The notes under the pieces: generated by a model
The model's database searches: none
The model's input: only the letters and a program-made list of their open reading frames with translations
What the model was told of the DNA's origin: nothing
Program-made: the position numbers and the translations under genes
Origin: Nitrosomonas sp.
GTDB taxonomy: Bacteria; Pseudomonadota; Gammaproteobacteria; Burkholderiales; Nitrosomonadaceae
Assembly (NCBI GenBank): GCA_024281995.1
Contig: JAMWZW010000008.1
Span: 29,806-93,805 of the forward strand
Direction of reading: 5' to 3'
DNA length: 64,000 nucleotides
Part shown: one piece after another, positions 37,525 to 52,792 of the stretch
Layout of the letters: each line of letters opens with the position of its first letter
Numbering within the stretch: position 1 is the first letter of the stretch

Positions 37525-37632
37525 GTATATCAAGATGAAGGAGATTGGGGGTTACACCGATTGACCTTACAGGAGCGTACAACGCTTATTTAACGCAAGT
37601 ACTTGAATAAAAAAATAGTGGAGGGCTATACC

Positions 37633-38325
37633 ATGTATCAGAGCGAAAATACTTTTGAATTCAATCCGGAAATGAGTGGTTTTGAAGCCGAGCAATATGA
37701 AGGTGAACAGTATGAAGGCGAACAATTTGAGCAATTTGAATATGGCGAAGCGGAGTGGGGGGAAGTATTTAATGAAAGTGAGGTAATGGAACTCACTGCC
37801 GAACTTCTGGAAGTTACCAACGAAGCAGAACTCGACCGTTTTCTGGGTAAATTGATCAAGAAAGCCGGTAGTGCCTTAGGTAAAGTGGTGAAATCCCCCA
37901 TCGGTCAAGCAGTGGGTGGGGTACTCAAGGGCGTCGCCAAAAAAGCATTACCGATTGCTGGTGGTGCGCTGGGTGCTTATTTTGGCGGTCCTCTTGGCGC
38001 CAAGATCGGCAGTGGCTTGGCCTCCGCGGCGGGAAGTGCACTCGGACTTGAACTTGAAGCGCTTAACCAAGAAGATCGCGAATTTGAAGGCGGAAAACAA
38101 TTTGTGCGATTCGCCGCTAATACCGTGAAGAATGCCGTAGCAGCACCACCTGCCGCCAATCCTCGCAGCACCGCGCAAGTGGCTGCTAATAAAGCCGCAC
38201 AAGTCTATGCACCCAATTTATTAGGTTCAGGATCGACATCAACCATGCCATCAGCCATGCCAGGTAAAGGGCGCGGAGGCCGATGGTTCCGGCGTGGCCG
38301 CAACATCATCATTGTCAATTGCTAA
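37633..38325 (+). CDS. charge-segregated glycine-zipper protein 1 (unknown function)
   Basis: ATG at 37633 with GGAGGG RBS; EQYEG repeats, ELTAELLEV..EAELDRFLG, Lys-rich amphipathic and Gly-zipper core, C-terminal GRWFRRG. Confidence 0.85.
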   Translation: MYQSENTFEFNPEMSGFEAEQYEGEQYEGEQFEQFEYGEAEWGEVFNESEVMELTAELLEVTNEAELDRFLGKLIKKAGSALGKVVKSPIGQAVGGVLKGVAKKALPIAGGALGAYFGGPLGAKIGSGLASAAGSALGLELEALNQEDREFEGGKQFVRFAANTVKNAVAAPPAANPRSTAQVAANKAAQVYAPNLLGSGSTSTMPSAMPGKGRGGRWFRRGRNIIIVNC

Positions 38326-38361
38326 GCAGTTTCTATACATATATTTACGAGGAGAACTAAC

Positions 38362-39063
38362 ATGCATGATATTGACCGTACACAACTGGAAAGCAACCCC
38401 GAGCTGGAAAATTATGAACATGAGCAATACGAGTTTGGAGAATACGGCGAATATGGTGAAACCGAATGGGGAGGCGAAACTGGTACTTTTAGCGAAGCGC
38501 AAGCGATGGAATTGGCCGCCGAGTTATTGGAAGTCAGCAGCGAAGAAGAGCTGGACCGGTTCCTGGGCAGTCTTATCAAGAAGGCTGGTCAAGTTGCCGG
38601 GAAGTTTATCAAATCCCCGGTAGGTCAGCAGCTTGGCGGCTTGTTGAAAGGCGCGGCCAAGCAAGCCTTGCCTATGGTGGGTAGTGCCATTGGTGGTTAT
38701 TTTGGCGGTGCGGGCGGTGCCAAAATCGGCAGCCAGGTGGCCTCTACCGCAGGGCGCATTTTTGGTCTGGAGCTGGAAGGACTGAGCCATGAGGATCAGG
38801 AATACGAAGCTGCCAAAAGCTTCGTTCAGTTTGCCGGAACAGCCGCAAAAAATGCAGCACTATCACCGCAGGCAGCCAATCCAAGGGCGGTTGCGCAATC
38901 CGCAGTTGCGGCAGCCGCCCGTCAACTTGCTCCAGGTCTCGTTCGCGGTGCTCCGGCTGCAGCGTTAGTTGCATCGGGCAGCGCGTGCCCTTCCTGCGGA
39001 CGGGGTGCCATGAGCGGCCGCTGGATGCGGCGCGGAAACAAAATCATACTATTTGGAGCTTAG
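38362..39063 (+). CDS. charge-segregated glycine-zipper protein 2 (paralog of protein 1)
   Basis: GGAG RBS; alignable with protein 1 throughout (ELAAELLEVSSEEELDRFLG, GLELEGL..EDQEYE, GRWMRRG). Confidence 0.88.
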   Translation: MHDIDRTQLESNPELENYEHEQYEFGEYGEYGETEWGGETGTFSEAQAMELAAELLEVSSEEELDRFLGSLIKKAGQVAGKFIKSPVGQQLGGLLKGAAKQALPMVGSAIGGYFGGAGGAKIGSQVASTAGRIFGLELEGLSHEDQEYEAAKSFVQFAGTAAKNAALSPQAANPRAVAQSAVAAAARQLAPGLVRGAPAAALVASGSACPSCGRGAMSGRWMRRGNKIILFGA

Positions 39064-39069
39064 CCTATC

Positions 39070-40431
39070 ATGGCTGCCACTTCTTACGCCACATGGATGC
39101 TCGAGCAGGAAGCTCGTGCTTTGCTGACCCGGTTGAAACGCGTCAAGCCTTTCGCTTTGCATGAAACCATGCTGCCAGCGGCATCGTTATTACCGGCAGC
39201 GCAAACCGGCATCGAGCGTTACTTGATGGAAGGGCGGCGAGAATTGAGAGGTATGATTCAACGTTACATTGCCTGGTTACGCGGACCATCCGGGCGTAGA
39301 GCCACGCCCGCCCATGCGCAGCGGCTATTCTCACTGCTGCGATTGAGATTCAATGCGGTACTGACACAATTTGATCTATTTAACGATGCACTCACGCAGC
39401 GCAGCGAAAATGAAATCGGTGTCTGGCTTTCCGGACTTGAAGTGGTGTCGGCTGATGCACTCACTATTCCGGGGCATTACTACGAGGTACCGCCAGTTAT
39501 CTGCTACCTCGATCGTGGTGTCGGCGCAGCGATCCGCCGTGCCAGAACACGATTGCCAGGCGGCGGTGAAAATCCGGTAGCGGTGATTCGTGTTCCGCGG
39601 GAACGTATGGTGGGCAGCGGTATCGCTTCTTCTCTGATCCATGAAGTGGGGCATCAGTCGGCTGCTCTGCTTAACCTGGTGAATTCCTTGCGGCCTGTTT
39701 TGCAGGGTATGCAACGAGGCAGTGGAGCCTATAGCAGTACTTGGGCATTGTGGGAACGGTGGATTTCGGAAATCGTCGCCGATTTTTGGTCTGTTGCCCG
39801 CATTGGCATTGCTTCAACGCTCGGGTTGATGGGCGTCGTTAGCTTGCCGCGCGCTTTTGTATTCCGCTTGAACCGGGATGATCCGCATCCGTCGCCGTGG
39901 ATACGCGTCAAGTTGAGTTGTGCGATCGGGCAAGCGCTTTATCCGCATCCGCAGTGGCAACGCCTGGCTCAATTATGGGAATCCTATTATCCGCTGGATG
40001 GATTGGAGGCCGCGCAACAGCAGAATTATCAGGCATTGCAAGCGACTTTACCTGGTTTTGTAGCGCTGCTGATTAATCACAGACCTGAAAGCCTGCGCGG
40101 GCGCAGCCTGGCTGAAGCCTTGCAGGTGCAAAACCGCCAGCCGCGTCGTCTTCAGGCATTGTTCCTAGCGTGGCGGCAGGAACCAGTGAAAATGTATCGC
40201 GCATCACCAGTACTGGCTTTTGCTGTGATCGGTCAAGCACGTGCCGACGGCCGCATGAGTCCGGAGCAGGAAAGCGCCATACTGGGAAAATTGCTCACCC
40301 ACTGGGCGTTGCGCAGTACCTTGGCAGTGTCCGCGGCCTGCTCAATGCAATCAGAACGGCCGAAGCCTTGGCTCACAAACTACTACCAACAAAATCGTTT
40401 TATTAACTATTCACTCAGGAGAATGACATGA
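39070..40431 (+). CDS. HEXXH (gluzincin-like) metallopeptidase-fold protein
   Basis: LIHEVGHQ followed about 40 aa later by WISEIVADFW (E-x-x-A-D third-ligand pattern); no signal peptide. Confidence 0.7.
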   Translation: MAATSYATWMLEQEARALLTRLKRVKPFALHETMLPAASLLPAAQTGIERYLMEGRRELRGMIQRYIAWLRGPSGRRATPAHAQRLFSLLRLRFNAVLTQFDLFNDALTQRSENEIGVWLSGLEVVSADALTIPGHYYEVPPVICYLDRGVGAAIRRARTRLPGGGENPVAVIRVPRERMVGSGIASSLIHEVGHQSAALLNLVNSLRPVLQGMQRGSGAYSSTWALWERWISEIVADFWSVARIGIASTLGLMGVVSLPRAFVFRLNRDDPHPSPWIRVKLSCAIGQALYPHPQWQRLAQLWESYYPLDGLEAAQQQNYQALQATLPGFVALLINHRPESLRGRSLAEALQVQNRQPRRLQALFLAWRQEPVKMYRASPVLAFAVIGQARADGRMSPEQESAILGKLLTHWALRSTLAVSAACSMQSERPKPWLTNYYQQNRFINYSLRRMT

Positions 40432-42596
40432 GTACAACTAGTCGAAGCCGAAAAGATGAAAAAAAGAAACCGGGAATCCTTAGAGTTAATTTATTCGCTG
40501 AATTTTCAGCTACAACGAGAGACCGAGAATTAAAAGGTGCTATCACCAACGCAGCAGTTATCGTCAAAACAAACATGTTTTCGAATAATAAAATTGTTGC
40601 TCAAGATGTGACTGGACAAGATGGATGGGTAGATATTCCTCTCGAATCGGGGGGGTATCGTATAGAGTTTCCTTCACTTCCCGATCAATGGCAGCCGCAG
40701 TCAGGGCATTTAAGTGTCACGGTTGACGATGCTAAATTTAATGAAACAGGACATATTGTCGAAGCGCGTCAGAGTGGACTGGCTCTGGATATACTTACTA
40801 CGGCAGGCGACGATTTTATGCCCAAGCCCAGCTTGAATATCACGCAAGGTAAAGGAATCTGGATAGTAGTCACTGTACCGAACTATTTGCCATCTGTAAT
40901 TCCCGATACCTCGATAAACAGAGGCTTTTTACAAAAAATTCAAAAATCCGAGCACAGGGATAATGTGAGCTATAAGGCTCAAGTAACAGATGTATCGGGT
41001 AGCGGTCCATTTGGTTTTTTTAGCAGAGTATTGCTTAGCGATGATCGTGATGGCCCAGCCGTTATTATGAACGACGAAGCTGTTATTGAAGAAAGTAAGC
41101 AAATTGTTGGTGGCCAAGTCAATACTACTACCTCATTAACACGTACTGAGACCTCTTTCACTGAAGACACGGCATTCTGGACGGCGATCCGCAATAATAC
41201 GGATGCGCTTTCATTCAATAATTATCTTAGTTTTATGAATTGGATCTTTTGCAACCAGTTACCTAAGAATTTGAGCGGTTTTGAAGATAAACGCTTTGGC
41301 AAAAAAAGAGAGGCCTTTGAAAGCGATGAAATAGGTTTATTGAATAAACGCTTTTTGCCTTTTACTGATTCAGATGCCTATCGTGTGATGAAGGCTGCGA
41401 CTGAGGCATTTGTCATGGTGAACTGTGGGGTGTTGAGCGAGGAATTACAGCCGTTTGACTTGGAGTTAGATAAAGCCTATCTCGATAGGAGAGATTTGCC
41501 GTTTCCACAGAACGGATTGAGTAGTGCTTTTAACGATAATTATCTGGTGGGCGTCGATGGCAATGGTAACGTATTGCCCTATCTCGCGGTTATTCGTCGG
41601 AAGTTACCCGATATCAAGATTAAGCTAACTCCTTTCGAAGAGGCGGCTCGAAGAAGTAGATCCAATGCAGTCGATGCGGACGAATGTTTTGGGCTGCTGC
41701 AAGAGAAACTCGCCAATCCTTGCTTGCTCGAGCTCATCTGGTCGTACTGGCACGAAGAAGGCATGTTGGTGCAAACAACTAACGCCATTACACGGCGGTT
41801 CCAGAATGTGCGTTCATCTGCACGTGATCCACTGGTTAACCTGGAAATGGATCCGCTACGGCCGCTCAATAATGTGCTTTGGGGTTATATCCAGGACGAG
41901 CAACATCGCTTGACCGTCAACCGGCGTAATTACGAGTACGATCACCATTACGGTCTCCATTTGGAAGGCAAAGCGGTGCAAAATTTTCGTCCCGCCGATA
42001 CGCGTTCAAAGTTCCTGGAAGCGTTTCATCATTTATTGCGTTTATGTAGCGTATTTTATAAGCAAGACGATGATACAACAATCAAGGCTGATGCTTTTCC
42101 AGTACTCAACGCCCTCAAGGAAATACACTTGATTCTGTCCCAAGGGGCGCACAATCAATTTGGCGATTTACCATCAACGGCTCGCATCGAAATGTTGATG
42201 CAGCAATGGTTGCTGGCTCGGCCGGAGTTCCGGGAATTGTTGCCGACGCGCATTATGGTGGCTTATCCCGAACCTTGGATGGATCGCGTTGACGCGATGA
42301 AAAAATTGCAAGGCTGGACCGATACCAGCGTATTGCATTTCCGCAACTTGGGCATGTTCGGTGAGCAACTTTTGCTTTCCATCCGTTGGGGTCATTGGAG
42401 CGACGAATTCGAGCCTGTCAAAGCGCTCAATTGGGCGCGGTTTTTCCGTCCGCAGGCTCAGGGCTACATTCATGCCTACCGTGCTGCAACCGGTGTTGAT
42501 CTATCGGTTGATTTGACTGCCAATGTGCCCGTGGATTCGACCTTGCCATCGGTATTGTTGCAAAAGCGCCTGGCAAGTCAGCAACGGGCGATGTGA
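40428..42596 (+). CDS. hypothetical protein (722 aa): beta-rich N-terminus plus helical His/Glu-rich C-terminal core
   Basis: Start overlaps the upstream stop (ATGA); long ORF with no recognised named family. Confidence 0.8.
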   Translation: MSTTSRSRKDEKKKPGILRVNLFAEFSATTRDRELKGAITNAAVIVKTNMFSNNKIVAQDVTGQDGWVDIPLESGGYRIEFPSLPDQWQPQSGHLSVTVDDAKFNETGHIVEARQSGLALDILTTAGDDFMPKPSLNITQGKGIWIVVTVPNYLPSVIPDTSINRGFLQKIQKSEHRDNVSYKAQVTDVSGSGPFGFFSRVLLSDDRDGPAVIMNDEAVIEESKQIVGGQVNTTTSLTRTETSFTEDTAFWTAIRNNTDALSFNNYLSFMNWIFCNQLPKNLSGFEDKRFGKKREAFESDEIGLLNKRFLPFTDSDAYRVMKAATEAFVMVNCGVLSEELQPFDLELDKAYLDRRDLPFPQNGLSSAFNDNYLVGVDGNGNVLPYLAVIRRKLPDIKIKLTPFEEAARRSRSNAVDADECFGLLQEKLANPCLLELIWSYWHEEGMLVQTTNAITRRFQNVRSSARDPLVNLEMDPLRPLNNVLWGYIQDEQHRLTVNRRNYEYDHHYGLHLEGKAVQNFRPADTRSKFLEAFHHLLRLCSVFYKQDDDTTIKADAFPVLNALKEIHLILSQGAHNQFGDLPSTARIEMLMQQWLLARPEFRELLPTRIMVAYPEPWMDRVDAMKKLQGWTDTSVLHFRNLGMFGEQLLLSIRWGHWSDEFEPVKALNWARFFRPQAQGYIHAYRAATGVDLSVDLTANVPVDSTLPSVLLQKRLASQQRAM

Positions 42597-43723
42597 GCTG
42601 CATGGCTATGATCAATTTCACCTCGGCGCTATATCTGGGACTGCATCATCCGAGCCAGTTTTTGCAACCCTGGCAACAACTTACACTGGGGGTGCCGGCT
42701 GCGCTTGAAGAACCGCCCGGGGCTGAGGAGGCGGCGGGAGGATTGGCACAGTTACAAGGGTGCGAGCACGGTGTGTTGTTGCCTTCCACGTTGCATCTAT
42801 TCTGGGATTTATTTGCCATGCTGCGCCAACAACCGGCAGCGTTGTTTCTGGATGAAGGAGCTTATGCGATTGCTCGCTGGGGAGCAGAGCAATTTAGTGC
42901 CAAAGGGGGTGATGTTTACACTTTCCGGCACCACGATCCTGAAGCGCTGCTGGTGCAAATCAAGCGGCATGCGCATCAAAGAAAATATCCCGTGGCAATT
43001 GCCGACGGCTTTTGTCCGGCGTGCGGTCATGCCGCACCAGTCGGAGAATATCTGGAAATTGTGAGACGTTTTGGTGGTTTACTGGTGTTGGATGATACCC
43101 AAGCTTTGGGAATTCTGGGTGAGTCGCCAGCGTTGCACAGTCCTTATGGCAAAGGCGGGGGCGGTATGTTGCGCTGGAGTGGAAACTTTGGACCGGACAT
43201 CGTGGTGGGCTCATCACTGGCAAAAGGTTTCGGCGTGCCGGTGGCGGCTCTTGCGGGCAGCAAAAAACTGGTCAAACGCTTTAAAATGGCCAGTGATACC
43301 CGGGTACATGGCAGTCCGCCGTCGGCGGCTGTTATTCACGCAGCCGCTCATGCGCTGACGGTGAACGAGATCCGAGGCAGTTTGCTGCGGCACAGATTGG
43401 CTCAGCGGGTTGTTCAATTTCGCAAAGGACTGGAAGCCATCGGCTGGGATTCCATCGGCGGCTGGTTTCCCGTTCAAACCTTGCGGGGAATCGTTGGAAA
43501 CGCCGCGGTCAAAATGCACCAATACCTTTCCCGGAACGGTATTCAGACAGTATTGTCACGGCCCCGCGATAACGGCGAGGCACACCTGAGTTTTTTAATT
43601 ACAGCGCGGCATAGCGCTGATGAAATTGATCATTGCATCGACATACTGAGCACATTGACGCATAGCATCGACAAGGCTGCAAATCGCAGCGGCAAGTCAG
43701 CGTATTCGGGCTTCATAAAATGA
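42593..43723 (+). CDS. divergent PLP-dependent alpha-oxoamine synthase-like (BioF/KBL/SPT fold) protein
   Basis: INFTSALYLGL, ADGF, LDDTQALG and SSLAKGFG (Schiff-base Lys); GTGA overlap with the upstream stop. Confidence 0.8.
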   Translation: MSCMAMINFTSALYLGLHHPSQFLQPWQQLTLGVPAALEEPPGAEEAAGGLAQLQGCEHGVLLPSTLHLFWDLFAMLRQQPAALFLDEGAYAIARWGAEQFSAKGGDVYTFRHHDPEALLVQIKRHAHQRKYPVAIADGFCPACGHAAPVGEYLEIVRRFGGLLVLDDTQALGILGESPALHSPYGKGGGGMLRWSGNFGPDIVVGSSLAKGFGVPVAALAGSKKLVKRFKMASDTRVHGSPPSAAVIHAAAHALTVNEIRGSLLRHRLAQRVVQFRKGLEAIGWDSIGGWFPVQTLRGIVGNAAVKMHQYLSRNGIQTVLSRPRDNGEAHLSFLITARHSADEIDHCIDILSTLTHSIDKAANRSGKSAYSGFIK

Positions 43724-43746
43724 CAACTATAGGCGAGAGGTGAATC

Positions 43747-46128
43747 ATGAATCAAGAACTGAACTTTGAAACCATACCGTTAGAACTCGCTCCTGAAATT
43801 ACGGGAGAAATGTTCGAGGTGGAAGGCGAGCGAGGAATCCGCCGCTCATTTGCAGGATCTAGAAACCGCAGTTTCCGGCCTGGCGTTCGTCCCGGTTTGA
43901 GACCAAAAGGAACCAAACGGCCGCCATTCTCGCGAACAAGACCTTTCGTAAAGGGGTCGCGGCGGCCGTTTGGAAGTGCTGTCTATGAACCTTATCCGAT
44001 TGCGAGCGAGCCCTATTCCAGTGAACCGGAACCATCCGGCTCAGAACGCACCCGCTGGGTACAGGATTGCTTGAATCAAACGGCGGGAACGCAACTTCCG
44101 GTGACTGGAATCATGGGGCGGGAGACACGCAGCGCCGTGCGGAATTTTCAGCGGCAGCAAGGGTTAAGAGCAAGCGGCATTGTCGGGCCGGATACCGAAG
44201 ATGCGTTGAAGGCGGCATGCACCGGACAAAATGCCGGGGAAAATTCTGAGCTTGAATCGTATATCAAAGAACCTGGTTTTATCGCGTGGTTAACCTGGCA
44301 ACCCAGTAATGAAAATCCGAAGTTATTTACCTGGGATGAAATCCAGAAGCGCGCGCGTGATCGGATTCACGGTGATGTCGGTGTTTATGTTGTTGTTCTA
44401 TTTGAACGAAGAACCATTGGCGGAAAAACCAAAAAAATAATCACCAAAATCCTGAAGGTAGGAAAGGCGATTGATGATTCCTTCAGGCAAAGACTAGAAC
44501 GCGAAGATCACCAAAAAATACGAGCAAAGTATCCGGGAAAAGTTGGATACTATCTGGCCAAAATACAAGCAAGCGGCGCATGTCCCATTCGTGGTTGCGG
44601 TACTGCAATAGAGCATTTGGTAACACGCACCTTGATTCGGGCGCGAAAAATGCTGCCTGAGCATCAGCGGCCTATTGTTCCTATCAAGGCACTCGAGCAA
44701 ATTCAGGTGGCCAACATTCTGCCGAAGCCTTTGGCAAAAAATCTTGGAAAAGCCTATGCTGCAGCCGGCCCCATGGATGTCCGGAAACAAAGAATAGGGC
44801 CAGTGGCAGCTCCAGCCAGCGGCTCCGGTAATTTGATACTGCCGAAGGATGCAATATGGGAACTGGAGTACCCCTTCAGCGAAGCCGAAGAACTGGAGCT
44901 CGCCGCCGAATTATTGGCCATTTCCAACGAAGAAGAGCTGGATCTATTTCTTGGCAAAATGTTCAAGGGAATCGGTAGAGGATTGAAGAAATTTGGCCGT
45001 TTCGTCGGCAAGAAAGTGCTACCCGCATTGGGTAAAGGTTTGAAGGCTATCGGCAAGGTTGCATTGCCGATTGTTGGCAAAGCGCTCGGATCTTTTATTC
45101 CCATACCGGGCGTTGGCACGGCTATCGGAGGGGCTATCGGAACAGCTGTCAGCAACGCGTTGGAGCTTGAATTCAGCGGCTTGCCTGCTGAAGAGGCAGA
45201 GCTGGAAATGGCGCGGCGTTTTGTGCGCATTGCCGCGACAGCAGCCAGACAAGCGGCTTTGGCCAATCCGCATGCCAATCCCGAAGCTATCGCCAATGCT
45301 GCTTTGATAGCAGCGGCTAAAATGCAAGTGCCGAATCTTCCTGTAGCGATTCAAAGAAATTCGGAACTAAACGGTGCGATTAATAATGAATGGCAGACCA
45401 ATAGCATTCAACCCGAACGATCCGATCAGGAAGCGTTTCTGGGCGATGTATGGAACTCCATTAGCACCGGAGCTCGTAAGCTCTCCAGTGGCGTTGCCAA
45501 TATGCTGACAGATTGTGCGCCCATTGAAGATCGCACAAGTTTTACGCCTAGAGATAAGCGCAAAGGGAAGCCGCGCGATATGAGTAAAGTATATGCGCTG
45601 GTGTTGCATCAGACTGCCGGCAATCAAAGGAATACGCCACCCAATCGGTATGACAGTGTCACTGCGCATTTTGTAATCAAGCCAAATGGACAAATACTGC
45701 AATTGCATCCATTGGCAGCTTACCTTAATGCCTCAAATGGGTTTAATGCTGGCAGTGTAGCCGTTGAATTTGCAGGTAATTATCCTGATGTAAAAGGTAA
45801 ACGGTACGTTTATCCGAATGGCGCATCGCCTCAAGGCATTCTGACTGCCGAACAGATCAAGGCTGGGCGCTGTTTAGTGCGTTACCTTGTTAAAAATATG
45901 GGCCTTACCCATATTGTGGCTCATCGGCAATCCAGTGCAACCCGTGCAAACGATCCGGGTCCGGATATTTGGTATCACGTAGGTCAATGGGCAATCAATA
46001 ATCTAGGTTTACGGGATGGTGGGCCAAGTTTTAAGGTTGGTAGCGGCAATCCCATACCGGATATTTGGCGGACGTGGGGAGAAACCAGACCACAACAGCC
46101 TGAACTTGGCGAGGAAATCTTTGCTTAG
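43747..46128 (+). CDS. multidomain protein: PG-binding domain + GIY-YIG-like region + third copy of the charge-segregated domain + N-acetylmuramoyl-L-alanine amidase
   Basis: WVQDCLN...FQRQQGL..SGIVGPDT (PG_binding_1); ELAAELLAISNEEELDLFLG; LVLHQT, TAHFVI, SVAVEF, IVAHRQ, DPG (Amidase_2). Confidence 0.8.
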   Translation: MNQELNFETIPLELAPEITGEMFEVEGERGIRRSFAGSRNRSFRPGVRPGLRPKGTKRPPFSRTRPFVKGSRRPFGSAVYEPYPIASEPYSSEPEPSGSERTRWVQDCLNQTAGTQLPVTGIMGRETRSAVRNFQRQQGLRASGIVGPDTEDALKAACTGQNAGENSELESYIKEPGFIAWLTWQPSNENPKLFTWDEIQKRARDRIHGDVGVYVVVLFERRTIGGKTKKIITKILKVGKAIDDSFRQRLEREDHQKIRAKYPGKVGYYLAKIQASGACPIRGCGTAIEHLVTRTLIRARKMLPEHQRPIVPIKALEQIQVANILPKPLAKNLGKAYAAAGPMDVRKQRIGPVAAPASGSGNLILPKDAIWELEYPFSEAEELELAAELLAISNEEELDLFLGKMFKGIGRGLKKFGRFVGKKVLPALGKGLKAIGKVALPIVGKALGSFIPIPGVGTAIGGAIGTAVSNALELEFSGLPAEEAELEMARRFVRIAATAARQAALANPHANPEAIANAALIAAAKMQVPNLPVAIQRNSELNGAINNEWQTNSIQPERSDQEAFLGDVWNSISTGARKLSSGVANMLTDCAPIEDRTSFTPRDKRKGKPRDMSKVYALVLHQTAGNQRNTPPNRYDSVTAHFVIKPNGQILQLHPLAAYLNASNGFNAGSVAVEFAGNYPDVKGKRYVYPNGASPQGILTAEQIKAGRCLVRYLVKNMGLTHIVAHRQSSATRANDPGPDIWYHVGQWAINNLGLRDGGPSFKVGSGNPIPDIWRTWGETRPQQPELGEEIFA

Positions 46129-46219
46129 TATGCCTGTGAATTATTTTCAATGATTTTTGCCATCCGAGAAAAATTGTTTTTTGTTGAGAATTGCACAAAA
46201 ATCTTAAAGGAGAAACAAG

Positions 46220-46798
46220 ATGACTACCATCTCAACCCAATCAGCGGAGGGTTCACTTGTAATCACGTCAAATGATGGTGAGCTTCCTGCTGCATCCGCC
46301 GTACTGTTGTTGAAAGCCACAAACCCGGAATATAACCAGCCTGTATTACATATCAAACAGGCAGGTGAACGTGGAAGCGCGGCTTCGATCCGGATCGACG
46401 ACCCGAATCCTGATATCGAGTTTGTCGAGACTAGCCCGGATAATCCTAATCCCAATGATCATGGCGCCGGGAAGTACGAGATTGCCGTTCAGTCGGATCG
46501 GCTTCAAATTAATGGCCGCAAAGCTGATGGTAGCCGCTTCGAAACCATCGTCGTGTTTCAGCGGGCGGGAGTAAATTGCGATCCTCTGCGGCCAGAAAGC
46601 GGGGGAAATATCGGTTTTGGTTTTAAAGAAGCCAAAGAGTTTAAAGATTTTGGAGGCGGACAAGGCGTCATCGCGATTGTCAATGTTTGTGTCGCTCCGA
46701 CGAAAAATCTCGCCGGTGCCGGAATTTTATATGTCGAGGACGGGGCGCTCAAATATATGGGATCGAAGGGAACAATAACTATTATTGCGCCAGCATGA
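46220..46798 (+). CDS. hypothetical beta-rich protein with a phage tail-fibre-like C-terminal motif
   Basis: AGGAG RBS; C-terminus GGGQGVIAI...GILYVEDGALKYMGSKGTITIIAPA. Confidence 0.65.
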   Translation: MTTISTQSAEGSLVITSNDGELPAASAVLLLKATNPEYNQPVLHIKQAGERGSAASIRIDDPNPDIEFVETSPDNPNPNDHGAGKYEIAVQSDRLQINGRKADGSRFETIVVFQRAGVNCDPLRPESGGNIGFGFKEAKEFKDFGGGQGVIAIVNVCVAPTKNLAGAGILYVEDGALKYMGSKGTITIIAPA

Positions 46799-46816
46799 AC
46801 GAGAGGAGAGTAAGAA

Positions 46817-48343
46817 ATGTCGACAAATTACGTTTGGCCGCTCAGCAACAGTACGACATCCGATGAGATGAACACTTCATTCGGGCCGCGCATCAATACC
46901 AATCGCTGGGATTTCCACGATGGCATCGATCTGCCGGCCAGTATTGGAACCAAGGTTTATGCTATGCGCGGGGGAATAGTGCATTTCGCCGGGTTACCTG
47001 GAGACCCTGGGGCGGGCAGGTATGATTCCCGTCATGTCATCCTCGAGGTTGATGACCCCAATGACGGATGGATGTATCTTGCTTACCTGCATCTTGACAG
47101 TATTGATGGGGCCGTGATCTCCGGTGCGAATATTGTGCAGGGGCAGGAAATCGGCACAGTCGGTAAGCACGAAGCGACTTATCCACATTTGCACATCGAG
47201 TTTCTCCAGGGAACGCCCGATGCCGATGCGCAAACCAGTCGTCATCCATTGAAGTATCTCCCCTATTCCAACAAGGCGAACTTTACCGCACCGCTAGCCG
47301 ACCGTTTCAATCGCTTCGGGCCACACATGGCAGCGCGTCTGCTATTCGGCGCCAGCAATAGGTCGGAAGGTGATTTGCTGAGGATTGAAGTCGACCTTCT
47401 CAGGGGTACCGGCGTGCTTGCTACCCGCGTCGTTGATTTTCACGATGAAACGACGATCAATAAGAAAAGAGGTAACAGCGACAAGAAAATCTTCAAAAAC
47501 GACATGGGCGTGGAAGGTTACCAAAAATCCCGCATGAACGATCCGGAACGTACACGTGCCGACCTTCACTACGGTATCCTGGTGCGCAACTTACCGGATG
47601 AGTGCGATACCCTCGTGGCTCGTGTTTTCGATATCGGCGGCAGCATGGTCAGCAGTGCGCCAATTCCCGTTCCGGATCAGAATGCAACGAATGAGCTTGT
47701 CTGTTTCGAGGGCGGCGCGATGCCACCCACAGGCTGGGAGCTTGTGACGAGCACGACAGGCAGCGGAACAACGGTGACAAATGATGCCTCTGCTGCATAC
47801 TCCGGTACGCACGGCATGCTCTGCATCGATGACTCCACTACAGAGACGAGAACACAACGGGCAGGTATCGAGTTTACGCTACCACCCGGTCGCTTCGAAT
47901 GGATTGCCGAAGGCTGGTTTAATCCGAATGTGCTGGATTTGGCACCGGATCAATCAATCTTGCTGCTGCATCTCCTGCATGGCGAAAATCTGAGCGTAGC
48001 GGCACGCATTCGCAACGAAGACGGTCAACTGCTCGCAGGAATCGTGGCGAAGGATAGCGACGGCGACTTGAGAGGTTCGAATAGTTCGGTAGTTTCCGGT
48101 GCCATCATTCCCGGCTTCTGGCGCAAGTGGAGACTGCATCTGCTACGAATCGGCACGCGGGAAACGACTGCTGTGCTTTATCTGGACAAAGACGGCGAAT
48201 TGGCAGAGCATGACCGCCTTAACTGGGATTCGACGACCTTTGAACCTCAAGTTTTGCGCGCTGGAATAGGCCGGTCGGAGGCGGGAGGGAAAGCTACTGT
48301 ACTGGTCGATGAACTGCGGATAAGCGAATATCCCATTCCGTAG
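46817..48343 (+). CDS. M23 family metallopeptidase with C-terminal beta-sandwich domain(s)
   Basis: FHDGIDL (HxxxD), YLHL, YPHLHIE (HxH); no signal peptide. Confidence 0.85.
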   Translation: MSTNYVWPLSNSTTSDEMNTSFGPRINTNRWDFHDGIDLPASIGTKVYAMRGGIVHFAGLPGDPGAGRYDSRHVILEVDDPNDGWMYLAYLHLDSIDGAVISGANIVQGQEIGTVGKHEATYPHLHIEFLQGTPDADAQTSRHPLKYLPYSNKANFTAPLADRFNRFGPHMAARLLFGASNRSEGDLLRIEVDLLRGTGVLATRVVDFHDETTINKKRGNSDKKIFKNDMGVEGYQKSRMNDPERTRADLHYGILVRNLPDECDTLVARVFDIGGSMVSSAPIPVPDQNATNELVCFEGGAMPPTGWELVTSTTGSGTTVTNDASAAYSGTHGMLCIDDSTTETRTQRAGIEFTLPPGRFEWIAEGWFNPNVLDLAPDQSILLLHLLHGENLSVAARIRNEDGQLLAGIVAKDSDGDLRGSNSSVVSGAIIPGFWRKWRLHLLRIGTRETTAVLYLDKDGELAEHDRLNWDSTTFEPQVLRAGIGRSEAGGKATVLVDELRISEYPIP

Positions 48344-48348
48344 CCGTC

Positions 48349-49839
48349 ATGTTTGCCACTGCGGATGTGCCAATGAGATTTGCGAATCTATCGTTTGATC
48401 CAACCGCTTTGGCTAGCGCGTACAGCCGGAAACATCATGGTCGCTTTGTGGCGGAGCTGGGGGAGTTTATTCGCTTCCCGAGTATCAGTGCGCAGCCGCA
48501 GCATAAAGGCGATACGCAGCGTTGCGCGGCATGGTTGACTGATCATTTGAAAAAAATTGGCATGGAACGAGTAGCTGTGATTCCTACCAGCGGTCATCCC
48601 GTAGTTTATGCTGAGCACTGCCATGCAGCGGGAAAACCGATGGTGCTGATTTACGGCCACTATGATGTGCAACCGGCTGAGCCGCTGAGTGAATGGCGCT
48701 CGGCGCCGTTCGAGCCGGTGATCCGTGGAGACGATCTTTATGGCAGAGGCGCTTCGGATGATAAGGGGCAGCTTTTTACACATGTCAAGGCATTGGAAGC
48801 ATTGCTTCGAGGCGGTCAGGGGTTGCCCGTTAACATCAAGTGCCTGTTTGAGGGCGAAGAGGAAATAGGCAGCCCCAGTTTGCCTGATTTCATGATTGCC
48901 AACCGGCAGTTACTTGCTGCGGATTGTGCCGTGATATCGGATACGCAAATCCCGGCTGCCGGTCAACCTGCCATCACTTATGCCTTGCGAGGTTCAATCA
49001 ATTTTGAGCTGGAGATCACCGGGCAAAAGCGGGAACTACACTCGGGCGTGCTGGGCGGTGCCATTCATAATCCGCTGCAAGCGCTGTGTGAAATGATTGC
49101 GCAACTACATGATCAGGCTGGACGTATAGCTATTCCTGGTTTTTATGACCGTGTGCGGAGATGGGATATGAAGGAGCGTGCCTACATGAAAAGGGTTGGA
49201 CCGTCTGATGAAAAAATATTACAAGATGCTGGAGCGGCAATGGGTTGGGGGGAACGGAATTATTCATTGTATGAGCGTACTACAATCCGCCCTACTATCA
49301 CGGTAACCGCCATGCATGGCGGATATCAGGGTAGCGGTGTTAAAGCGGCTATCCCGACACACGCTGTGGCCAAACTGAACTTCCGTCTGGTACCAGACCA
49401 GGATCCGCAGGAAATTGATCGGTTATTCCGGGAATATGTCGAACAGATTACGCCTCCGGGTCTGCGGTTACGAGTTCGTACTTTTGCATCATCCCGGCCT
49501 GTACTGATAGGCCGCAGCCATCCTGCAGTAATGGCTGCGGCGCACGCCTATCGTCAGGGATTCGGGACAGCACCGGTATTTTTGCGCAATGGCGGCACGA
49601 TTCCGGTAGTTGGTCTGATTCAGGAAATTTTGCATCTGCCTGTTGTGTTGATGGGATTCGGTTTGCCAGATGACAGGATTCACGGATCGAATGAAAAATT
49701 TCATTTACCCAATTTTTTCAATGGCATTGAGACCAGCATCCGGTTTCTGACAGCAATGGGTCAGAGTCAGCATGCCAGTCTTGTCAGGCGGGATAACAGT
49801 CAGCAGATTCGTAACACAGGAACGTTTTGGGGGCCATGA
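48349..49839 (+). CDS. M20 family dipeptidase
   Basis: YGHYDVQP, GRGASDDKG, EGEEEIGS, IHGSNEK. Confidence 0.92.
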   Translation: MFATADVPMRFANLSFDPTALASAYSRKHHGRFVAELGEFIRFPSISAQPQHKGDTQRCAAWLTDHLKKIGMERVAVIPTSGHPVVYAEHCHAAGKPMVLIYGHYDVQPAEPLSEWRSAPFEPVIRGDDLYGRGASDDKGQLFTHVKALEALLRGGQGLPVNIKCLFEGEEEIGSPSLPDFMIANRQLLAADCAVISDTQIPAAGQPAITYALRGSINFELEITGQKRELHSGVLGGAIHNPLQALCEMIAQLHDQAGRIAIPGFYDRVRRWDMKERAYMKRVGPSDEKILQDAGAAMGWGERNYSLYERTTIRPTITVTAMHGGYQGSGVKAAIPTHAVAKLNFRLVPDQDPQEIDRLFREYVEQITPPGLRLRVRTFASSRPVLIGRSHPAVMAAAHAYRQGFGTAPVFLRNGGTIPVVGLIQEILHLPVVLMGFGLPDDRIHGSNEKFHLPNFFNGIETSIRFLTAMGQSQHASLVRRDNSQQIRNTGTFWGP

Positions 49840-50630
49840 TGATCATTGATTGCCACTGTCATGCCGGAAGCGGCGATGGGTTTACCGGACCCTGGGATAC
49901 GCGGGCGCCATTAGAGGATTATCTGCGCCGTGCCACTGCGGCAGGAATTCAGCGCAGTGTTTTATTTGCCGCATTTCATTCGGATTACGCTGCTGCCAAT
50001 AAAGAAGTGGCGAAAATTGTAGCTAGCCGGCCGGACAGGTTTTATGGATTTGCATTTGTGCATGCGGCCAGAGACCGCGGGCGGGTGCATAAATTGATCG
50101 AAACCGCTGTCAGACAATATGGATTTGCTGGGATCAAAGTGCATCGCCATGATGCGCCGATTACCCGGGAAATCTGTGATGCGGCGAGGGCTTTCGCTTT
50201 GCCGGTACTTTACGATGTGGTGGGAGAAGTATCGGTTTGTGAGTTGCTGGCGCAAGAATACCCGGATGTCAACTTCATTATTCCCCATTTAGGCAGTTTT
50301 GCCGACGATTGGCGTGCACAATTAGGTCTCATTGATCATTTGGTTCGTCATCCGAATATTTATGCGGATACCGCTGGTGTGCGGCGTTTCGATTTGCTGG
50401 AACAAGCGGTGAAACGCGCCGGAGCGGGCAAGATTTTGTTTGGTTCGGATGGGCCATGGCTTCATCCAGGCATTGAATTGGCAAAGATCAAGGCATTACG
50501 CCTTTCACCACAGCAAGAAAAATTGATTTTGGGAACTAATTTGCAGAAATTAATCCATTCTGCGCGACAGTATCGGCCATCCGCTTTATCCGGAAGGCAC
50601 AACACGGCGCCATTCGCTTTTTCCGAATAA
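49836..50630 (+). CDS. amidohydrolase family (Amidohydro_2) protein
   Basis: IDCHCH, GIKVH, IPHLG, ILFGSDGP; the ATG at 49836 overlaps the M20 stop (ATGA). Confidence 0.9.
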   Translation: MMIIDCHCHAGSGDGFTGPWDTRAPLEDYLRRATAAGIQRSVLFAAFHSDYAAANKEVAKIVASRPDRFYGFAFVHAARDRGRVHKLIETAVRQYGFAGIKVHRHDAPITREICDAARAFALPVLYDVVGEVSVCELLAQEYPDVNFIIPHLGSFADDWRAQLGLIDHLVRHPNIYADTAGVRRFDLLEQAVKRAGAGKILFGSDGPWLHPGIELAKIKALRLSPQQEKLILGTNLQKLIHSARQYRPSALSGRHNTAPFAFSE

Positions 50631-50655
50631 AACTCCGCAGACGAAGATAGCGTAA

Positions 50656-52053
50656 TCAATACTCGCTATTTTCCTGGCGTTGCGCTGCCCGGCGCAACTG
50701 TAAGGCACGGTCGGTTACGCCGAGACGTTGCGCGGCGCGTTGTAAATTGCCGTTTGCTTCGTCGACCGCGATACGAATGGCGGTTTCTTCGGTGTCTTTG
50801 CTGATAGTTTTGAGTCCCATGCCGCGGTTCAGCGCGATGCGGATTGCCCGCTCAAAACTCATGTCGCGCCATTCTTTCCAATCTTCAGATAAAACCGGCC
50901 GTTCATCCGGCGGAATACAGCCAACAGTAATAGGGCCTTCACCCGCATAGCGGCACAACATCCGCGCGATTACCTGCTTGAGGTCGCGTACATTGCCCGG
51001 GTATTGCCTGCGTAACAGATATTCTTGCACAGGCTTATCAATGGTGGGCACATTGTGGTTCGTGCAGTTTTTTTTTAGGAAATGATTGGCTAGAGGCAAA
51101 ATGTCTTCAGATCGTTCGCGCAGAGGTGGTAAGCGGCATATATAGCTGGCAATTCGGTAATAGAGATCGGCACGGAATTCGCCGCGTTGAACTTGTGCCA
51201 TGAGGTCGCGATTGGTGGCGCAAATTAATCGGAATGAGGTGCGTTGCCAGGCATTGCCGCCGACACGTTTGTAAGTTTGCTCTTGAATGACCCGTAAAAG
51301 CTGAGTTTGCATGGTCAAGGATAATTCGCCCACTTCGTCCAGAAAAAGCGTGCCGCCGTTTGCGAGCGCGAATACACCATCCCGTGAAGATGCAGCACCT
51401 GTAAATGCCCCCCGTTCATGACCGAAAAATTCACTGCCCGATAATTCCGGCACAATAGTCGTGCAATCCAGAATGACAAGCTCGCCCTTATCGGTGCGAT
51501 TGTCGAGCGAGTGTATGAGATTGGCCAGTAATTCCTTTCCTGTTCCGCTTTCGCCGAGAATTAATACCGATACGTTGGTAAAGCGCGCGACTTCGATCAC
51601 TTGGCGTAATATGGTTTGCAGTGTTTGGCTTGTACCAACCAATGCATTTTGAACAAGCGAAGAATTGAGTAACCGATTGATGGCTTCCCAGCGGCGCAGG
51701 CGGGCGGTGATTTCATGAATGATCAAATTATCTTTTGTGCAAACCAGTACATCAGACGCGCCCGCTTCCATTAATTGCCAGATGGCTTCTCCTGAAATCG
51801 CTTCGTGACAGCAGGCAAGGACTTGTATTTGACCGTTGTGGCTAAGTTCGCATAACTGTTCGCAGAGTTCCGGGGTTACTTTGTTGCTAAAGACGATACC
51901 GGAGTGACTGCAGGGAACGCGATAATCTTGTACTTTGATGCCCTGCTGGGTCAAGAGGTCGATGAATTTACAAATAGTTTTTTCCGAGTACTCTCCGACG
52001 CCGCGAATCCAGACAGTGGTAGGTTCAGATATATCATTAAAGAAAGTATCCAT
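50656..52053 (-). CDS. sigma-54-dependent transcriptional activator (bEBP) with degenerate receiver-like N-domain
   Basis: GESGTGKE, FFGHERGAFTGA, LFLDEVGE, FRADLYYRI and a Fis-type HTH; the ATG at 52053 is preferred (TTG at 52065 is an alternative). Confidence 0.93.
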   Translation of the reverse strand: MDTFFNDISEPTTVWIRGVGEYSEKTICKFIDLLTQQGIKVQDYRVPCSHSGIVFSNKVTPELCEQLCELSHNGQIQVLACCHEAISGEAIWQLMEAGASDVLVCTKDNLIIHEITARLRRWEAINRLLNSSLVQNALVGTSQTLQTILRQVIEVARFTNVSVLILGESGTGKELLANLIHSLDNRTDKGELVILDCTTIVPELSGSEFFGHERGAFTGAASSRDGVFALANGGTLFLDEVGELSLTMQTQLLRVIQEQTYKRVGGNAWQRTSFRLICATNRDLMAQVQRGEFRADLYYRIASYICRLPPLRERSEDILPLANHFLKKNCTNHNVPTIDKPVQEYLLRRQYPGNVRDLKQVIARMLCRYAGEGPITVGCIPPDERPVLSEDWKEWRDMSFERAIRIALNRGMGLKTISKDTEETAIRIAVDEANGNLQRAAQRLGVTDRALQLRRAAQRQENSEY

Positions 52054-52792
52054 AGTATTTAGCAACGAACTGATTGAATTACATCCACGAAGAATCCGGA
52101 AGGGCTCTTCTCATGTTTGATAATTGCTTGCAGTCAGTGTCGCTATACTTGGATTTTTTGATCAGCCGAATTACTTCTTATTAGTATTCAGCAGGTTGTT
52201 ATTGAAGTGTTGTTCAAGCAATTATTTTTTCATTGCATGGCGGTTAATTTCCATGCCTGCAATTTCATTCTAAAGTAAATTACCTTAATCTTGAATAAGA
52301 TTTATGTATTCTTTTAATTACTTCATGATTTCTATGATAGATATATTGGTTAATCCGGATTCTCACTAAGTAAGCAGCACTGATTGAATCTTACTTCGGC
52401 GCTCAATAGGAGGTGGTTTGAGCGCGTACGTTGCTATCTTATAAACTTAATGAAAGTCCGGTTTTAATCTGAATTGGCAACAAATCCCTATACTTGTGCT
52501 AGCGATATTTCCATTCATTGATAATAAAGTTATCACCGAATTGTTTAATTTGAAGTGAGATTAATCACATGTCCTGCAATTTTATGGCATCATCGTTAAA
52601 CAGTTGAAATTTGGACTATTAGAAAATCTATTACCAGTCAAAGTATTGTGGCGATCTGAAGTGGTTGTTCTTACATTTCATCTGATTCTTCTCATATTTG
52701 CATTGACCTGATATGGCTTATTGCGTTATTTTTACCCATTTTTATAATAGAGCCTTTGATGGGTTACAGTTTTTTATTGGTTGGCGATTTTT

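Follow-up and report, generated by a model that had tools for sequence, protein, structure and literature searches.

What is made, and against whom is it directed, when a wall-binding domain, a strongly basic middle region, a glycine-rich domain and an amidase are joined in a single polypeptide? This question is raised by an open reading frame (ORF) of 793 amino acids (aa) at positions 43747-46128 of a Nitrosomonas genome window, the window being the whole stretch of 64,000 nucleotides (nt) that was analysed; the closest named homolog of the 793-aa protein comes from N. ureae. A first reading of the bare sequence (hereafter the original prediction) had described the product as polymorphic-toxin-like, with a divergent GIY-YIG nuclease fold in its middle. 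Comparison with relatives supports the view that the middle position is a recombination slot, and profile and structural comparisons support a divergent GIY-YIG/URI-type fold for the module that occupies it here, as a Lys variant (Y...KxG...E) and a previously unrecognised family.

The gene starts 23 nt behind the stop codon of a gene for a BioF-like pyridoxal-phosphate (PLP) enzyme. All elements that the original prediction had listed for it were found in place, and the following features are used below.

43735..43743, + strand: good Shine-Dalgarno sequence (GAGAGGTGA), a few bases before the ATG
43747..46128, + strand: whole ORF, 793 aa plus stop, taken as the longest frame
43747..43833, + strand: acidic N-terminal leader, aa 1-29, net charge -7 (charge count, family consensus)
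43834..44046, + strand: Arg/Pro-rich tract, aa 30-78 (net +15), presumably disordered, then acidic EPYxxxSEPYxxEPEPxGSE, aa 79-100
44044..44208, + strand: PG_binding_1 domain, aa 100-154 (Pfam, E 2.3e-12)
44260..44868, + strand: variable-slot module, aa 172-374, net +17, ending in the family WELE motif
44371..44664, + strand: core of the slot module, beta-hairpin/alpha/alpha/beta/alpha, aa 209-306
44869..45345, + strand: shared domain, third copy in the cassette, aa 375-533
45424..45501, + strand: pre-amidase element (mini-tag), aa 560-585, DQEAFLGDVWNSISTGARKL..
45586..45963, + strand: Amidase_2 / PGRP-type N-acetylmuramoyl-L-alanine amidase domain, aa 614-739 (Pfam, E 3.7e-14)
46099..46125, + strand: acidic C-terminal tail PELGEEIFA
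37603-38325 and 38362-39063, + strand (as one context feature, 37633..39063): two small paralogs with the shared domain, an FE.NPE-type leader and the canonical tail (..GRWFRRGRNIIIVNC and ..GRWMRRGNKIILFGA)

The acidic start and the Arg/Pro-rich tract are thus as had been read from the letters, and Pfam confirmed both end domains, PG_binding_1 (PF01471) with 47.4 bits against a cut-off of 23; solved PG-binding domains match this region weakly. Eight database proteins have the amidase behind the shared domain, namely five full-length orthologs of 793-794 aa that are 89-93% identical to the query, and P0006, P0007 and P0010, which carry a different middle module. Since these eight share the order of modules, the fusion is not an assembly artefact.

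In total 81 homologs were mapped onto the query, and the types of slot content were obtained by single-linkage clustering resolved by inspection. The proteins are built from an N-module (leader plus PG_binding_1, q1-170), a variable slot, a glycine-zipper domain (q373-532) and an optional Amidase_2 domain, whose place varies between relatives: it follows the shared domain in some and occupies the preceding slot in others. The conserved N-module ends at ..GPDTEDALKAAC.G, and beyond this point the homology to relatives with other middle modules breaks. At least five types of module were found in the slot: the query's own (25 proteins), a canonical GIY-YIG-like module (17), Ntox16 (P0043, from Nitrospira), another unknown module (P0017, P0047) and the amidase. 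In P0006, P0007 and P0010 the glycine zipper and amidase are 83-85% identical to the query and the N-module 62-73%, around a different GIY-YIG-type middle module; on these identities, one cassette has been cleanly exchanged for another. The ortholog-like P0009 (88% identity over q69-533) has no amidase and closes with the canonical tail. Since the middle position is swapped among relatives with flanks that are 62-85% identical, the polymorphic-toxin-like architecture is upheld. The order of domains, for which the original prediction had recommended a comparison among orthologs, is not invariant, although the exchanged position is internal and not C-terminal as in classical toxins.

At the P0010 locus (L069, 5729-7938) a 57-aa ORF separates the PLP gene from the effector, which is shortened at its N-terminus (homology from q87 onwards); a frameshift or an error in the assembly may have detached the leader of P0010.

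The middle module and its probable GIY-YIG fold

The family of the middle domain is rare, since a HMMER search of 1.8 billion cluster representatives returned 23 relatives at E <= 1e-3. Its alignment comprises 27 sequences, which are 23-37% identical to the query, two close orthologs excepted. Invariant positions are W184, G212, Y214, G239, E289, R294, R298, P326 and A336, while K237 is nearly invariant (a true Tyr stands in P0084); the consensus reads GVYI ... LKVGK(T/A)..F..R ... FYLA ... IE.AIARTL.RAG..LP.H ... N.LP.PL...AY ... L.L.P...WELE. The motifs on which the original prediction had based its GIY-YIG proposal, GVY 212-214 (44380), KVGKA 237-241 (44455), FRQRL 246-250 and AIE 287-289 (44605), lie exactly where they had been placed.

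Four independent lines converge on one superfamily with the motifs in register, and for this reason the module is assigned to the GIY-YIG/URI group, to which it very probably belongs. The first consists of weak Pfam matches: in hmmscan the only nuclease-type matches among the 27 members are to T5orf172 (4/27, E ~0.05) and GIY-YIG (2/27), with a best E of ~0.04. T5orf172 and GIY-YIG both belong to the Pfam GIY-YIG clan.

The second line is profile-profile comparison with GIY-YIG domains taken from 29 genomes of the class. HHalign gave 73% (P 3.1e-5, score 34.6) for the family against a mixed GIY-YIG set and 73% (P 3e-5, score 35.4) against UvrC alone, and in both real comparisons GVY, KVG/YVG and F..R/L..R were aligned. 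Reversed profiles, used as controls, reached up to 19.5% with scores of 14-26 (one of them scored 26), and 100 column shuffles scored at most 14.4. As a calibration with accepted subfamilies, UvrC-type against small stand-alone GIY-YIG domains gave 82% (score 33), and GIY-YIG against T5orf172 gave 59% (score 28).

The third line comes from the slot itself. The canonical sister module (~145 aa, 17 members, same slot) reads RGVYLLIFR...GHIGYVGE..NL..RM...FCWV...K.IE..LR..LNP...N. It aligns with UvrC at 85% (HHalign, P 6e-6) and with the query's module family at 78% (P 2e-5), the motifs coinciding in an alignment of 113 columns, and it bridges the query's module and UvrC.

The fourth line is structural. 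AlphaFold models were obtained for the query domain (predicted local distance difference test, pLDDT, 84; predicted template modelling score, pTM, 0.84) and for a compact, 38%-identical homolog (pLDDT 90, pTM 0.87). Both models have the order E-E-H-H-E-H, with GVY, KVG, F..R, FYLA and E..R..R on matching elements. In a Foldseek search of 350,542 PDB chains with the compact homolog, GIY-YIG folds accounted for 12 of the 14 top matches and 18 of the 50 top matches; the 18 chains are 2lwf, nine of UvrC (1yd0-series), six of R.Eco29kI and two of 9u75, and the identities of 2lwf (the N-domain of AtGRXS16) and 9u75 (CMoRE/PD-T4-3) were verified. The UvrC domain of T. maritima was matched with a template modelling (TM) score of 0.50 on the target over 89 aligned columns, the target having 89-90 residues. 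As judged from this model, such enrichment for one rare fold is not chance.

Several results weigh against the assignment or against a nuclease activity. No match of PF01541 to the query was found, and no GIY-YIG-type Pfam model reaches its cut-off in the family; Pfam and NCBIfam are silent on the middle domain of the query, and searching PDB sequences with the profile of this domain gave no match. With the query's own model, whose hairpin insertion is unusually long, Foldseek found no GIY-YIG fold (best E 0.38), and BFVD yielded a sole hint, an intron-associated endonuclease at E 0.08. The structural support is therefore drawn from the model of the 38%-identical homolog and not from that of the query, and every Foldseek E-value of that homolog is weak (0.2-2). 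Regarding the catalytic residues, R249 of the query stands in the UvrC +10 register as the alpha-1 Arg, and it is unconserved in one subclade; for the UvrC Asn no counterpart was identified in the middle module, where R294 and R298 are invariant instead. As the alpha-1 Arg is not family-wide and a counterpart of the Asn was not identified, catalysis by the module is putative. Its strongly basic character (net +17) would fit nucleic-acid binding.

The original prediction had also noted that Lys replaces the second Tyr and had taken this as a sign of uncertain activity. The replacement itself was observed (K237), and it is weak evidence in that respect, since T5orf172 and Tox-URI2 carry Lys as well: the T5orf172 domains that were retrieved read phi-K-I-G-x-T, and those of Tox-URI2 have VY...FKVG, in register with the query module. 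Tox-URI2 has been defined by the signature "Y, KxG, [EQ]" (Zhang et al. 2012, PMC3482391), and the query has it in the same order, as G-V-Y214, K237-V-G239 and E289. In the sequences compared, the Lys variant thus recurs among URI domains of the toxin type and is conserved there.

Membership in either of these families is not supported. Tox-URI2 (PF15653) was matched by 0/27 members in hmmscan at E up to 10, nor was any match found in the window's genome. Neither the hidden Markov models nor HHalign supported T5orf172 (PF10544), HHalign to Tox-URI2/T5orf172 giving 3-8%; the family against four Tox-URI2 sequences gave 3%, a comparison weakened by one of the four being in the wrong frame. Because it is undetectable as a member of either, the middle module is treated here as a new family. 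It shares with Tox-URI2 and T5orf172 the order of motifs, the replacement of the second Tyr and a beta-hairpin/alpha/beta/alpha core, and Tox-URI2 is likewise a swappable toxin module. In contrast to both, it is larger (~200 aa), having an additional strand that contains W at the N-terminal end and an LP.PL...AY...WELE extension at the C-terminal end, and it lies in the middle of the protein and not at its C-terminus, with no Imm-type gene adjacent. The N-terminal GIY-YIG domain of UvrC (e.g., PDB 1YD0-1YD6) is its best profile-profile match and among its best structural ones, both having GVY, (K/Y)VGK(A/T) and F/L..R at spacing +10. It differs from the module in that the latter has K237 for the second Tyr, lacks an identified Asn equivalent and is placed in a wall-anchored effector instead of a repair enzyme.

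In the window's genome, which is 97.6% complete, the GIY-YIG Pfam model had no match at E <= 1e-3, whereas such a match, normally to uvrC, exists in 39 of the 41 genomes of the class. Either this assembly lacks uvrC, or the N-terminal domain of the gene is divergent.

Shared domain, amidase module and border motifs

The region between slot and amidase had been described as the third copy of a shared domain, and this was borne out: aa 375-533 are 44-45% identical to the ORFs at 37603-38325 and 38362-39063 (E ~1e-27), and the genome holds only three full copies. The domain begins with an acidic helix (YPFSEAEELELAAELLAISNEEELDLFLG) and continues with a glycine-zipper core that is cationic and rich in Gly and Lys; an acidic ELE..EE.ELE stretch comes next, and then a helix rich in Ala. 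The core (aa 400-472) has a net charge of +12 and 5 GxxxG motifs; aa 400-475, with 5 GxxxG and 11 small-xxx-small motifs, include the sole hydrophobic stretch of the protein (Kyte-Doolittle hydropathy 1.55). We infer a glycine-zipper domain with predicted membrane activity. A partial, weak match to the Gly/Lys-rich core was observed outside the window (genome contig C9:132291-132488; E 1e-5, 50% identity over 68 residues), within a 642-aa open frame.

The short element before the amidase had been read as a fourth echo of this domain. Its resemblance to the ELD.FLGK segment was confirmed, as the profile of aa 560-579 aligned with sEeELDqFLGkLfkg..rGlKk.G of the shared domain at 83% (HHalign, P ~1e-5, score 32.9), compared with a score of 11 for the reversed profile and 21 for the best of 40 column shuffles. 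Its ..EELD.FLG|K pattern may also recall the leaders of double-glycine bacteriocins, a likeness on which nothing is built here. It is, however, not a free-standing tag: it starts every amidase module of the family, on whichever side of the shared domain the amidase is located, and since it travels with the amidase it is regarded as an integral N-terminal part of that module.

For the amidase itself, PF01510 scored 53.6 bits (cut-off 26) on the 793-aa protein, and the family profile matched solved amidases, PGRP-SD and T7 lysozyme in the PDB, while phmmer with nothing but the amidase region gave no match among PDB sequences. H621, E674, H726 and D736 are invariant in the family; from their position in the motifs and from AmpD and T7 lysozyme, we take H621, H726, D736 and E674 to be the Zn-ligand and catalytic positions. 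On these profile matches the module is a true Amidase_2/PGRP-type domain. PHROG endolysin families match both end domains of the protein.

Two further motifs, neither of which had been noticed in the original prediction, are family-wide signals. A leader with the consensus MNQELxFExxPFExxPE..E.FEEESE.GRR opens all effectors; both small glycine-zipper proteins start with a related FE.NPE motif, and some slot modules start with EFSFEVEPF. A canonical tail, GRW[IV]R[RHQ]G..[IV]V[LV]LGA-COOH, ends nearly all members of the family, among them the small proteins as well as effectors that lack the shared domain (in the window at 38281-38322 and 39019-39060; also P0009, P0012, P0015, P0021, P0043, P0096 and others). 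It looks like a recognition or assembly signal, and often follows a CxxC. The query clade is an exception, ending in ELGEE[IL]F[AV] after the amidase in place of the canonical tail. A genome-wide regular-expression scan for leader and tail returned three cassette proteins only, the tail in the two small proteins and the leader in the 793-aa protein; other matches to the leader were rejected as chance.

The original prediction had further described each enzymatic module as flanked by ELE-type tags. Six E[LIVMF]E motifs were counted (residues 24, 168, 372, 382, 473, 485) against 0.96 expected (P ~6e-4), and this six-fold enrichment is indeed located at module borders. Whole units are also joined in some relatives: P0056 is a head-to-tail, in-frame fusion (residues ~475-500) with an internal leader at ..AIP-MNQELGFETIPFE / ..AIP-MNQELGFETIPFEIAPEF, and P0020-type proteins (C-terminal 180 aa) do not stop at ..VVLGA, where an acidic stretch resembling a leader and one more domain, rich in Cys, follow. 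Border motifs, leader, tail and fused units would be in keeping with the proposal of the original prediction that modules are loaded as cargo or processed into separate effectors, with recognition or cleavage at the borders of the units.

The cassette and a proposed mode of action

The 793-aa gene belongs to a cassette in which one or more small glycine-zipper proteins, an HExxH protein, a ~720-aa protein (722 aa in the window), the BioF-like PLP enzyme, one to three effectors, an M20 and/or Amidohydro_2 protein and a convergent sigma-54 activator follow each other. This order is conserved in Nitrospira, in another Nitrosomonas (at a different chromosomal site) and on metagenomic contigs, and variation is confined to the interval from the PLP gene to M20/Amidohydro_2, which is hypervariable. 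Downstream of the effector, a 192-aa ORF and a signal-less M23 peptidase (46220-48343) recur only in the locus of the closest ortholog (L071). The other cassettes examined (L001, L002, L062, L067, L070) lack both, and for this reason they are counted as part of the variable effector stretch.

Our preferred reading, which we hold with evenly divided confidence, is that the protein is a composite, signal-less antibacterial effector of this conserved, sigma-54-controlled cassette, in which a wall anchor, a nuclease-type module, a zipper and an amidase are combined. Upon induction of the cassette, the glycine-zipper domain would permeabilise a membrane, acting in cis and jointly with the two small paralogs, and would let the signal-less modules reach the peptidoglycan in the manner of a holin-endolysin pair. 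PG_binding_1 would bind the wall and the amidase would cut it, while the basic GIY-YIG-like module would act as a nuclease-type warhead whose passage over the cytoplasmic membrane is aided by the zipper, as in Tde1. The toxin would be freed by lysis of, or self-export from, a producing subpopulation, and the producer would be protected by a charge-masked pro-form and tight transcriptional control and not by an immunity protein. Neighbouring competitor cells are favoured as the target because nuclease-type effectors carry the wall anchor in cis and because the swapping of modules resembles inter-strain diversification. Also counted in support of the proposal are the net charge of +17, the Lys variant as a known toxin signature, the conservation of the cassette around a hypervariable stretch, its accessory distribution and the precedent of Tde1.

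A number of observations speak against this proposal, in which membrane activity, export, processing and target are themselves proposals. By synteny, no immunity gene was found to track the GIY-YIG-type modules in the loci compared, which is unusual for a nuclease aimed at kin. The genes 3' of the effector differ in every locus without following the type of module, and in one locus (L070) the effector is directly followed by Amidohydro_2 and the activator, with no gene between effector and Amidohydro_2; as no gene consistently follows these modules, an adjacent immunity gene is considered absent. Against it, too, no secretion apparatus was recognised in the cassette. In the amidase, the family's near-invariant Glu, which precedes the putative Asp ligand by two residues, is replaced by A734 (45946-45948; RENDPG to RANDPG), a change common to the query and its 89-93% identical orthologs. 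In favour of the proposal, by contrast, no signal peptide was found, neither Sec nor Tat, the N-terminus being acidic with a maximum hydropathy of 0.4 and no hydrophobic segment, and the zipper is the only hydrophobic stretch. Pfam and NCBIfam scans of the 793-aa protein revealed no trafficking or secretion domain. A PT-VENN candidate (E 0.0011, below the cut-off) was discarded, its GENS motif being confined to close relatives and the homology simply ending after ..ALKAAC.G.

The absence of an immunity gene and of a secretion system, together with a dedicated, tight regulator, makes self-directed lysis or abortive infection a serious rival, if on the whole an unlikely one. The sigma-54 activator would then sense a signal and the cassette would kill its own cell, with the zippers as holins, the amidase (and the M23 peptidase) as endolysins, and the GIY-YIG-like module degrading the cell's own or phage DNA. 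Even the minimal cassette, which consists of PLP enzyme, effector, Amidohydro_2 and activator, is without an immunity gene, the effector has neither a signal peptide nor a recognisable secretion component, and the activator is conserved as a dedicated gene. GIY-YIG nucleases are found in defence systems such as PD-T4-3, and anti-phage systems typically carry exchangeable nuclease, membrane or hydrolase effectors. On the other hand, nearly every effector, including the nuclease-type ones, has a peptidoglycan-binding domain in the same polypeptide, which would place it outside the cytoplasm and away from the producer's DNA unless it is cleaved, and the swapping of modules between close relatives with conserved flanks is a classical mark of inter-strain toxin diversification.

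A bolder form of the antibacterial proposal, which we regard as rather improbable, dispenses with secretion and immunity altogether. Units marked by an N-terminal FExxP-phi-E leader and the C-terminal GRWxRRGxxIVLLGA tail, concatenated in one precursor, would be cut by the cassette peptidases (HExxH, M20) at the acidic ELE/FLG borders and carried over membranes by the charge-masked zipper, so that a single precursor would release anchor, nuclease, pore former and wall hydrolase.

It is less probable still that the protein is a mere cell-wall hydrolase (autolysin or bacteriolysin), with the amidase as sole enzymatic warhead and the middle module as a GIY-YIG-derived but catalytically dead binding or scaffold domain. 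The Lys at the second catalytic Tyr, the alpha-1 Arg that part of the family lacks, the missing Asn equivalent and the silence of curated GIY-YIG models at threshold would all agree with a dead domain, and neighbouring genes encode wall enzymes as well (M23). However, the invariance or near-invariance of Y214, K237/G239, E289, R294 and R298 across sequences that are 23-37% identical speaks for conservation of an active or binding site, Tox-URI2 toxins are defined by this very Lys variant, and the slot also holds the canonical GIY-YIG-like module and Ntox16. Moreover, many members have the middle module without any hydrolase (e.g., P0008, P0009, P0021, P0025, P0099), and there it must function on its own.

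That the resemblance to GIY-YIG is fortuitous and the middle domain an unrelated alpha/beta fold is highly improbable: the empty Foldseek result of the query's own model, the empty profile search of solved structures, homolog E-values all above 0.2 and the one reversed-profile control at 26 would be in line with it, but the four lines converge with motifs in register in every comparison, 12 of the 14 top structural matches come from a fold that is a tiny share of the PDB chains searched, and the sister module with canonical motifs bridges both.

Known systems and distribution among nitrifiers

In the literature no description of the cassette or of the effector family was found. The nearest known systems by architecture combine some of its parts. 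Tde1, a type VI secretion system (T6SS) DNase of Agrobacterium tumefaciens, has GxxxG repeats that permeabilise the cytoplasmic membrane of the target and are needed for delivery; it belongs to the Ntox15 toxins, carries its zipper at the N-terminus and comes with a T6SS adaptor and an immunity protein (PMC10240207). Like Tde1, the 793-aa protein has a nuclease-type module and repeated GxxxG in one polypeptide, and the two may be likened on this ground. In contrast to Tde1, its zipper is a 160-aa domain with acidic masking helices, located C-terminal to the toxin module, and neither a T6SS nor an immunity gene accompanies it. Phage-type endolysins (PG_binding_1 plus Amidase_2), which work with holins, offer a second parallel by architecture, as signal-less wall-binding amidases that rely on a membrane-active partner. 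Here this part would be fused in cis and belongs to no known holin family, a nuclease-fold module is inserted, and there are no phage genes nearby.

Polymorphic toxins (PMC3482391) likewise consist of a conserved N-terminal part and toxin modules that are exchanged by recombination between close relatives; recognised toxin families (URI-type, Ntox16) occur in the slot of the query family, and the effector genes form arrays of one to three. The present family differs in that the variable module lies inside the protein, ahead of a conserved C-terminal domain and tail, that no immunity gene is adjacent, that no known trafficking domain or signal peptide is present, and that the genes form part of a fixed sigma-54 cassette which also encodes PLP, M20 and amidohydrolase enzymes. 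Three classical rules of polymorphic toxins are thus broken, the warhead not being C-terminal, the immunity gene being absent and no known export route being present. The GIY-YIG/URI superfamily would gain a previously unrecognised family that is invisible to Pfam, exchanged with its canonical GIY-YIG-like sister in an internal slot of wall-anchored effectors. If it is true that the zipper moves signal-less enzymes and a nuclease over membranes, this would represent a simple, portable principle of delivery and a new route of protein release.

The family occurs in nitrifiers (Nitrosomonas, Nitrospira), organisms that live in dense aggregates, are genetically hard to study and for which almost no interbacterial weaponry has been described. 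The cassette was found in 13 of the 49 genomes of the genus and in none of 32 other genera of the order, and is considered accessory on account of this distribution; the query-type module was present in 3 of the 49. The GC content of the cassette region is 0.47-0.55, compared with 0.35-0.45 in its flanks. The core cassette proteins of the Nitrosomonas window (37603-52065) and of a Nitrospira locus (L001, GCA_029194675.1) are 51-75% identical, although the two genera belong to different phyla. Identity across phyla, the different chromosomal sites and a GC content above that of the flanks suggest horizontal transfer of the cassette among co-habiting nitrifiers.

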